NCBI GenBank assembly: GCA_026396115.1
Contig: JAPLXL010000007.1
Location: 6,565-70,564, forward strand
Source of the DNA: Candidatus Nealsonbacteria bacterium
GTDB lineage: Bacteria > Patescibacteriota > Minisyncoccia > Minisyncoccales > RBG-13-42-11
DNA length: 64,000 bases
Direction: 5' to 3'
The stretch's first letter is position 1. Each line of letters begins with the position of its first letter. A program made the position numbers and the translations under genes. The notes below the pieces were generated by a model that saw only the letters and a program-made list of their open reading frames with translations, was not told the DNA's origin and ran no database searches. Positions 41,482-41,545 of the stretch are shown here, piece by piece.

Positions 41482-41545
41482 ACCGAGCTTTCACGCAGTG
41501 AAAGCGAAGGTAAAGAAGAAAGCGAAGCCTTCTTCGCCGACCGAG
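41482..41545 (+). repeat. Double-hairpin repeat family, full-length copy (intergenic htpX/lemA)
   Basis: ACCGAG-GCTTTCACgcaGTGAAAGC-GAAGGTAAA-GAAGAAagcgaagccTTCTTC-GCC, followed by a second ACCGAG at 41540..41545. Confidence 0.8.

Follow-up and report, generated by a model that had tools for sequence, protein, structure and literature searches.

A family of 48-57-nt double-hairpin elements gained and lost between near-identical strains of Nealsonbacteria-like Patescibacteria

Examination of a 64,000-nucleotide stretch of contig JAPLXL010000007.1 from Candidatus Nealsonbacteria (the window), whose gene content is that of Nealsonbacteria-like Patescibacteria and whose GC content is about 35%, revealed a family of very short repeats, each built of two hairpins joined by conserved unpaired words. 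Copies of this family are gained and lost as clean blocks between near-identical strains, and the blocks lie immediately 3' of a pre-existing T-Y-R-N-N-N motif. The family is very probably mobile selfish DNA. The complete explanation that we propose, non-autonomous mobile DNA moved by an enzyme of the HUH/Y1 type, is put forward tentatively, with a probability of about 0.4.

An earlier note on this DNA, drawn from the letters alone, had listed 11 sites of such a repeat, all beyond 33 kb, and all 11 hold members of the family. A covariance model built from an alignment of 80 distinct copies and run on the window with filters off gave 15 matches at E<1e-3 (best 6e-21; 11 on the plus strand, 4 on the minus strand), all within 33386-63952, and in 1-33 kb nothing better than a bare 23-nt hairpin (E=0.002); the uneven distribution remarked on in that note is thus borne out. 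Hairpins of the form GAAGA...TCTTC occur at 13 window loci, against 0.38 expected and a maximum of 3 in first-order (Markov-1) simulated window sequences, and this control, which the note had proposed, rules out composition alone. The view that no true element exists, but low-complexity GAA/TTC sequence, a recurrent peptide motif under protein-level selection or an assembly artefact, can call on the purine-rich sequence and on a weak enrichment of the short word CGAAGGTAAA taken alone (13 against 5.9 expected). It is opposed by the hairpin counts just given, by model E-values that reach 1e-21, by the two thirds of copies that are non-coding, with genic copies read in differing frames and strands, and by the presence of the family in independent assemblies from dozens of samples. 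This view is effectively refuted and extremely improbable.

Further copies exist beyond the window. A metagenome scan with an exact 23-base pattern matched at least 120 loci in Joint Genome Institute (JGI) metagenomes, mostly from groundwater and sediment samples, covering 820 kb. A search with nhmmer found 360 members in these 820 kb of listed loci, and the covariance model found 195 in the first 390 kb. With the seed copy left aside, these sampled element-bearing contigs carry about 0.25 copies per kb, which amounts to roughly 2% of their DNA. The family is absent from two syntenic contigs that are about 78% identical to the window, viral contigs gave 0 matches, and plasmid and phage collections gave chance 33-nt matches and no others. 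A 15-base pattern run against the genome collection was too short to be useful, with at least 120 matches, those listed being single chance hits in unrelated taxa. No publication describing the family was found, and literature searches for repetitive extragenic palindromes (REP), miniature inverted-repeat transposable elements (MITE) or elements like the Rickettsia palindromic elements (RPE) in bacteria of the Candidate Phyla Radiation (CPR) yielded none; in the Nealsonbacteria genome paper, transposase genes are the sole mention of mobile DNA. The family has apparently been undescribed until now.

Two main types (A and B), a further type with its own hairpin 1 (C) and an AT-rich variant can be distinguished, so that of the earlier description the hairpin plan stands and the single type of unit does not. 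Type A (53, 56 or 57 nt) is organised as ACC-GA-hairpin 1-GAA-GGT-GAA-hairpin 2-GCC, with hairpin 2 reading GAAGAGGAC-GAA-GTCCTCTTC, or in short form ACCGAG-hairpin1-CGAAGGTGAA-hairpin2-GCC. Type B (45-47 nt) follows the same plan with hairpin 1 cut to a 2-bp stem and a tetraloop (ACCC-GA-GC-CGCA-GC-GAA-GGGT-...), and type C has a third kind of hairpin 1, CCGTC-GAGTTGAA-GACG, followed by the 3' module common to the other types. The defining copy at 41482, flagged by the earlier note, reads ACCGAG-CTTTCAC-GCA-GTGAAAG-CGAAGGT-AAA-GAAGAAAGC-GAA-GCCTTCTTC-GCC. Hairpin 1 is closed by ACC(C):GG(G)T pairing around a GA/GAA purine internal loop, and in an alternative pairing the AGGT just 5' of hairpin 2 joins the 3' end GCCT. 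Hairpin 1 begins 5 nt from the 5' end and hairpin 2 stops 3-4 nt from the 3' end, the two ends (ACCGAG... and ...TTCGCC) not being inverted repeats of each other. The unpaired words are strongly conserved, ACCGAG being the invariant 5' word.

The stems vary between copies yet stay complementary, as had been noticed from the letters. Paired cells make up 94.9% of stem cells, against 41-51% when the stems are slid. Changes on both sides were counted in 117 cells; shuffles gave 36.6 +/- 6.9, with 0 of 500 reaching 117, and slid controls gave 2-24. The search pattern fixed some columns, which are uninformative here, and the covariation signal is that of the columns left free. It extends even to the 2-bp stem of type B (GC/GC, GT/AC, AT/AT). 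The DNA fold z-score is -3 to -5. In a search of Rfam, three tRNAs alone matched the window at gathering score, and nothing credible at E<=10 was found around the copies.

Mobility was demonstrated by 18 filled/empty pairs from an all-against-all search of the loci. Their insertion junctions show no target duplication and never more than one ambiguous base, and all nine genic insertions among them measure exactly 48, 54 or 57 nt; the inserted block is 48 nt for type B and 54 or 57 nt for type A. The phosphomannomutase (PMM) gene was observed in three states: empty in about 118 homologues of 475-476 amino acids, with a B element only in P0001 (492 amino acids, 97% identical), and with a B element and a nested A element in the window (509 amino acids). 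One relative (L001), about 97% identical to window 59.7-64 kb, differs from the window at four element sites. A second (L157), 92-97% identical, is without the copies upstream of uvrA and inside uvrC, and has copies upstream of groES and of ORF 54783, both of which are empty in the window. Covariation and these presence/absence polymorphisms at about 97% identity together uphold the earlier suggestion of a structured family whose hairpins are acted on by selection or by the copying mechanism. Its proposal that ACCGAG on both sides of the flagged copy might be a target duplication fails, since ACCGAG is the invariant 5' end of the element and the 18 pairs are clean.

In the left flank of the copies, position -6 is T in 96-100% of cases, position -5 a pyrimidine (C or T) and position -4 a purine (A or G), whereas any base may stand at -3 to -1; position +1 is mostly T and usually part of the inserted block. 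Since T-Y-R-N3 is present in the empty alleles, it represents a target preference and not element sequence. The element itself carries the motif, at its 3' end (TCGCCT) and on the bottom strand of its linker (TCACCT), which explains both head-to-tail arrays and inverted nesting. Tandem arrays of the form ...GCC-T-ACCGAG... give TCGC at -6 to -3 in 11 of 147 A copies, and inverted nesting recurs at TTCACCT^ and TTTACCC^. The left flank of the flagged copy, TTGGAA, agrees with T-Y-R-N3, and its second ACCGAG (41540-41545) starts 1 nt past GCC, exactly where a tandem neighbour would start, and has the appearance of a truncated second unit. The htpX-lemA spacer of locus L162 is unrelated in sequence and has no bearing on this second ACCGAG.

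Two thirds of the copies are non-genic, although coding sequence makes up 87.5% of the sampled DNA. About a quarter of all copies lie deep inside open reading frames (ORFs; 36 A and 21 B). In the window the host genes are uvrA, uvrC, PMM, ychF and RNase J, with insertion lengths that are always multiples of three, and tryptophanyl-tRNA synthetase (TrpRS) is likewise an insertion host in L001. Deep genic A copies are sense in 31 cases and antisense in 5, read as TELPxEAKVKKRTxSSSP or NRASxGSEGEEExEVLFA, and deep genic B copies are antisense in 15 and sense in 6, giving a 16-residue peptide. Nearly all six frames of the consensus sequences are without stop codons, and these frames, with lengths in multiples of three, would let genic insertions survive as short, hydrophilic, disordered loops. 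To judge from the intact ORFs, the genic copies are presumably translated. The AlphaFold model of the window PMM (mean pLDDT, the predicted local distance difference test, 87) gives values below 50 and no secondary structure for insert residues 401-430, and predicts the insert to be a disordered loop.

A second relation to genes concerns start codons. In 34 (31%) of 111 non-genic A copies, the 5' end lies exactly 2 nt from a divergent gene's start codon, a placement expected for 1.4% of non-coding T-Y-R-N3 sites, and many start-adjacent copies occupy very short spacers just past the upstream stop codon. A -10-like box at a fixed distance from the start-proximal copies was looked for and none was seen. 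In a survey of the upstream regions of 278-667 genes from all loci, Shine-Dalgarno sequences were nearly absent (GGAGG upstream of 2% of genes), and the -10 box TANNNT was sharply concentrated exactly at -12 relative to the ATG (in 40 of 278 genes, with a background of about 9), which suggests many leaderless or very-short-leader mRNAs. The preference for start codons could come either from targeting or from selection.

Subterminal hairpins, a short specific target and the lack of terminal inverted repeats and of target duplication are hallmarks of IS200/IS605 insertion sequences (IS) and of REP (PMC6006769), and of HUH single-strand transposition (PMC5027513). The anatomy of the present family and its base-exact insertion fit transposition of this type. 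According to our proposal, the elements would be non-autonomous mobile DNA, with units of 48 nt in type B and 54/57 nt in type A in which conserved single-stranded words link two hairpins, and would move as folded single-stranded DNA through a cut-and-rejoin ('peel-and-paste') reaction. The hairpins would be bound by an HUH/Y1 enzyme acting in trans, whose cuts, at the left flank and at the right end, would each fall after a hexamer beginning with T-Y-R; both presumed cuts (left T-Y-R-NNN^, right T-C-G-CCT^) would have the same triplet at the same offset. The obvious candidate enzyme would be the single-copy Y1 gene of these lineages resembling REP-associated tyrosine transposases (RAYT). The assignment of the moving enzyme to the HUH/Y1 class remains a tentative one.

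As the earlier note stated, the window encodes no transposase. The check for a Y1/RAYT gene elsewhere which it suggested revealed RAYT-like Y1_Tnp genes in 3 of 120 listed element-bearing loci (L206, L217 and L226; Table 1). They were found by a regular expression for the HUH...Y motif, phmmer with IS608, IS200 and E. coli RAYT sequences having given a false negative. The L206 gene matches Pfam Y1_Tnp at 1.1e-9 and the NCBIfam REP-associated tyrosine transposase at 3e-8, below the model cut-off; it has homologues in L217 and L226, and the family also occurs in L244-L249, of which contigs L244 and L245 hold one A copy each. More than 7,800 members of this RAYT-like family, about 235 amino acids long, occur in Parcubacteria, among them Nealson-, Wolfe- and Colwellbacteria and related groups, and the gene is a single-copy one in conserved synteny. 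The nearest A copies lie 0.7-7 kb from the RAYT-like genes. One palindrome of such a gene reads CACAATCTTCCGAGGC-tcg-GCCTCGGAAGATTGTG.

Several results weigh against HUH/Y1 mobilisation. Flanking the RAYT-like genes, and breaking into them in frame, are long palindromes of their own (CTTCCGAGG.., CTTACGAGG.., GTTGACATCGGATG..) and not A or B elements; these palindromes are not dispersed, and they differ between lineages that share nearly identical A elements. The enzyme class suggested by the earlier note is hence present in related genomes, but in place of the cognate repeats of a REPtron these genes have private palindromes. One Nealsonbacteria locus with a RAYT-like gene has no A or B copy in 20 kb. 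An autonomous copy, sought as a split 5'-half...3'-half pair at 150-4000 nt, was not found in 0.9 Mb, a small part of any genome, and clustering of 882 ORFs for a multi-copy transposase gave housekeeping families and nothing else. The conserved target triplet lies 3 nt from the cut, unlike the tetranucleotide that abuts IS608 (PMC6006769), and guide-target covariation between the linker G/A and the C/T at -5 was not significant (odds ratio 1.9, p=0.2). The stems contain 30 G.T and 23 A.C pairs, without strand asymmetry, and since G.T is not commoner than A.C there is no sign that one strand alone must fold. The plus-strand excess noticed earlier is real (11:4) and is local to the window: with gene direction as a proxy for the replication strand, neutral copies divide into 30 in the same and 28 in the opposite direction to local genes, which gives no support to a general orientation bias.

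These results have to be set beside explanations in which another agent is at work. Mobile DNA might be moved by a transposase or recombinase acting on double-stranded cruciforms, or by template switching or hairpin gene conversion of the host, which would account for the missing cognate link to the RAYT-like genes and for the lack of strand or orientation asymmetry. In L001, moreover, the PMM allele has the appearance of sequence lost between short TTCTT direct repeats, not of a precisely excised element, and two codons are changed at the junction of the TrpRS insertion. Slippage, however, is disfavoured by the sharp motif at a fixed 3-nt offset and by the base-exact blocks of 48, 54 or 57 nt, which argue for a site-specific enzyme, and the elements lack the terminal inverted repeats and target duplications of DDE transposases; we regard a non-HUH/Y1 agent as somewhat unlikely. 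It seems unlikely, too, that we are dealing with a 'coding-proof' mini-transposon whose targeting is coupled to gene starts. Its length in multiples of three, its near stop-free frames and its T-Y-R-N3 target would then have evolved to colonise an approximately 87% coding genome, and the preference for -2 would reflect either insertion where the promoter DNA of genes with a short leader or none is opened, or co-option as a portable hairpin cassette for 5'-untranslated regions (5'-UTR) or the spacers between cistrons. Movement would depend on a new enzyme, or on a domesticated Y1 protein whose target sites differ from its own flanks.

The family might alternatively be a functional, structured cis-acting RNA or DNA module kept by selection, for example a hairpin cassette, in a 5'-UTR or between cistrons, with a role in mRNA stability or regulation, mobility being secondary. 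The 34 of 111 non-genic A copies that precede a start codon by exactly 2 nt, all in one orientation (against 1.4% of sites), speak for it, as do the many copies in very short operon spacers right after a stop codon, the near absence of Shine-Dalgarno sequences together with some genes that look leaderless, and the strong conservation of the unpaired words. Such a module is hard to reconcile with copies in both orientations, in several ORF frames and in tandem or nested arrangement, with sites that are empty in strains 92-97% identical (upstream of uvrA in L157; upstream of groES and of ORF 54783 in the window), with G.U pairs that are not in excess over A.C pairs, and with the lack of a match to any Rfam family. 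It is in our judgement distinctly improbable as the primary explanation.

Comparison with known systems gives partial likenesses. As with REP/REPIN-RAYT systems, the family consists of short GC-rich hairpin repeats in high copy number, hundreds to a genome, with conserved bases at the hairpin foot, has neither terminal inverted repeats nor target duplications, and resides in lineages that carry a single-copy, syntenic Y1 gene flanked by palindromes. REP hairpins have a GT[AG]G (or CGTC) tetranucleotide at the 5' foot (PMC6006769, PMC3733652). The present family has no such tag; its foot word is CCGA within ACCGAG, and these 4 nt 5' of hairpin 1 fit the atypical CnGA foot of class-3 HuH-Y1 hairpins. 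It further differs in having two different hairpins in direct order instead of an inverted REP doublet, in having about a quarter of its copies deep in ORFs, whereas REPINs are extragenic, and in RAYT-like genes that are not flanked by A or B elements. Likeness to the ends and gene-less derivatives of IS200/IS605 lies in the asymmetric structure with a hairpin near each end, in exact, duplication-free insertion 3' of a short specific sequence, and in a possible guide-like AGGT/GCCT pairing. The differences are the size of only 48-57 nt, the target triplet 3 nt from the cut, a parent IS with tnpA that was not found in 0.9 Mb, and the lack of a detected strand bias. Classical MITEs, derived from IS with DDE transposases, have the terminal inverted repeats and fixed-length target duplications that this family lacks.

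Rickettsia palindromic elements, selfish repeats of about 100-150 bp, are not known outside Rickettsia and are not known to have a defined target motif; they enter essential protein genes in frame, and the peptides translated from them are tolerated at the protein surface. Like them, the present family inserts in frame in genes (9 of 9 genic insertions in multiples of three; three-state PMM) with peptides tolerated as loops. It is three times smaller and is set apart by a sharp T-Y-R-N3 target, self-nesting and unrelated sequence. The small dispersed repeats of filamentous cyanobacteria, tens of nt long, are mobile and insert into one another, and their transposase is not known; we know of no report of them as in-frame gene insertions or next to start codons. 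They are comparable in their very small size and self-insertion, and differ in sequence, host phylum and architecture. The name 'small dispersed repeats' is used in PMC3116915. By analogy, the family would work like a REP or IS200-end derivative and behave in genes like an RPE, while being a member of neither group.

Table 1. Family members in the window and RAYT-like Y1 genes in metagenome loci.
Locus	Coordinates	Strand	Description and context	Score or state
Window	33386..33431	+	B-type, 45+1 nt; intergenic between tRNA-Asn (33270-33344) and rpoD stop	20.6 bits; nhmmer B E=3e-9
Window	41482..41539	+	A-type flagged copy, 57+1 nt; between htpX start (CAT 41474-41476) and lemA stop	71 bits, E=6e-21
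Window	42112..42166	+	AT-rich variant ACCGAA-ATTAAT..ATTAAT-TGAAGGTTGAA-ATGAATT..ATTCATT-GAAC	30 bits
Window	42193..42239	+	B2-type, CCC...GGGG closing stem; intergenic, lemA / response-regulator gene	covariance model
Window	51853..51900	+	B-type, 48 nt; antisense within uvrA (49365-52331, minus), frame gives 16-residue peptide	
Window	52334..52387	+	A-type, 54 nt; 5' end 2 nt from opposite-strand uvrA start codon	
Window	54351..54404	+	A-type, 54 nt; sense within uvrC (53450-54757, plus), read as NRASKGSEGEEEGETLFA	empty in L157
Window	57956..58057	+	A-type; hairpin-2 loop holds nested minus-strand C-type member (~57993-58047)	
Window	59036..59080	-	A-type 5' half (hairpin 1); abuts tRNA-Leu	
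Window	59101..59145	+	B-like copy in RNase J N-terminus, sense (...ESLDEGKKRFTSST...)	
Window	60808..60926	.	Composite of at least 3 members between RNase J stop and trpS start	
Window	62127..62226	+	B-type, 48 nt; within PMM gene (61903-63432, minus), split by nested A	
Window	62144..62197	-	A-type, 54 nt; nested in linker of PMM B copy	
Window	63871..63952	+	A hairpin-2 module then degenerate A copy; sense within ychF	
L206	1596-2309	+	RAYT-like Y1 gene	
L217	1501-2235	-	RAYT-like Y1 gene	
L226	2240-3064	-	RAYT-like Y1 gene	
L244	2402-3109		RAYT-like Y1 gene	
L250	10001-10714		RAYT-like Y1 gene	

Some window copies deserve comment beyond Table 1. The AT-rich variant was missing from the list in the earlier note and is repeated in other loci too. 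The site of the copy next to the uvrA start codon is empty in L157, which is 97.5% identical. The A copy with a nested C-type member forms a C-terminal extension of the GPI gene (238 amino acids, against 195 in relatives), and the half copy beside tRNA-Leu has its 5' end 2 nt from the likely RNase J start (ATG 59083). The composite before trpS comprises a C-type piece (60811-60848), a minus-strand A variant (60849-60902) and an extra GAAAAAG hairpin, and the whole block is absent in L001 (about 97% identical). The nested A and B copies in PMM together encode a 34-amino acid insert. The ychF gene runs past the window end, and the element content at its site differs in L001. In ychF (63457-64000), the helical insertion domain is much shorter than in relative L002 and is partly element-derived (...EIEERNLSSPTKLLQSKSEGKEEKEN...), and elements may thus replace protein segments besides adding to them.

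The repeat-bearing part of the window begins, directly past tRNA-Asn, with the copy at 33386, the first after the accessory islands. From there on the genes are core ones: rpoD, dnaG, htpX, lemA, groESL, uvrA, uvrC, RNase J, trpS, PMM and ychF. Upstream, the defence island at 27000-33350, which ends at tRNA-Asn, carries a cyclic-oligonucleotide-based antiphage signalling system (CBASS; SMODS cyclase with Cap15 receptor-effector, 28017-29508), a LexA-like repressor (29968-30594), an N6/N4 DNA methylase (30614-32188) and a TdeIII-type restriction enzyme (32192-32974). A low-GC glycan-synthesis island without members of the family occupies 1-22 kb. We infer that 1-33 kb is free of the family because these accessory islands came recently from a lineage without the element.

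The glycan island (1-22150; GC 26-34%) is a cell-surface glycan cluster with several GT1/GT2/GT4 transferases, a UDP-glucose dehydrogenase, a DegT aminotransferase and a flippase, as well as LytR_C and dockerin/lectin proteins, and was probably acquired recently. Other repeated sequences were observed in the same half of the window: a 261-nt tandem duplication at 1-534, cut by the window edge (1-149/262-410 and 170-273/431-534, 80-90% identical); a 92-nt intergenic segment present at 1965-2063 and 5969-6067 with 93% identity and a terminator-like hairpin (AAAAAACCCGCC...GGCGGGG+T run); and terminator-like hairpins of the form 'AAAAAACCGCC...GGCG' after genes in 22-28 kb (22890-22923, 23982-24007, 25344-25392 and 27570-27618). 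In the core half, gene direction switches at 52300-52450 from minus on the left to plus on the right, and the cumulative GC-skew minimum falls near 52 kb, with no dnaA there; this flip could be a replication landmark or a mere divergent operon boundary.

Genomes of the Candidate Phyla Radiation are tiny, densely coding and thought to be poor in repetitive DNA. In the sampled element-bearing contigs, roughly 2% of the DNA belongs to one family of 48-57-nt elements which is still moving between near-identical strains, lies at a fixed distance from many start codons and appears to have remodelled the essential proteins UvrA, UvrC, PMM, YchF, RNase J and TrpRS by added disordered loops. The family offers strain-level markers, and it is also a warning, since such elements can fragment assemblies and add false N-terminal extensions to predicted genes. 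For the RAYT-like Y1 proteins, widespread in Parcubacteria and so far uncharacterised, it would provide a substrate that can be tested, and it would be a natural system for the study of the minimum size of mobile elements and of the adaptation of mobile DNA to coding sequence.

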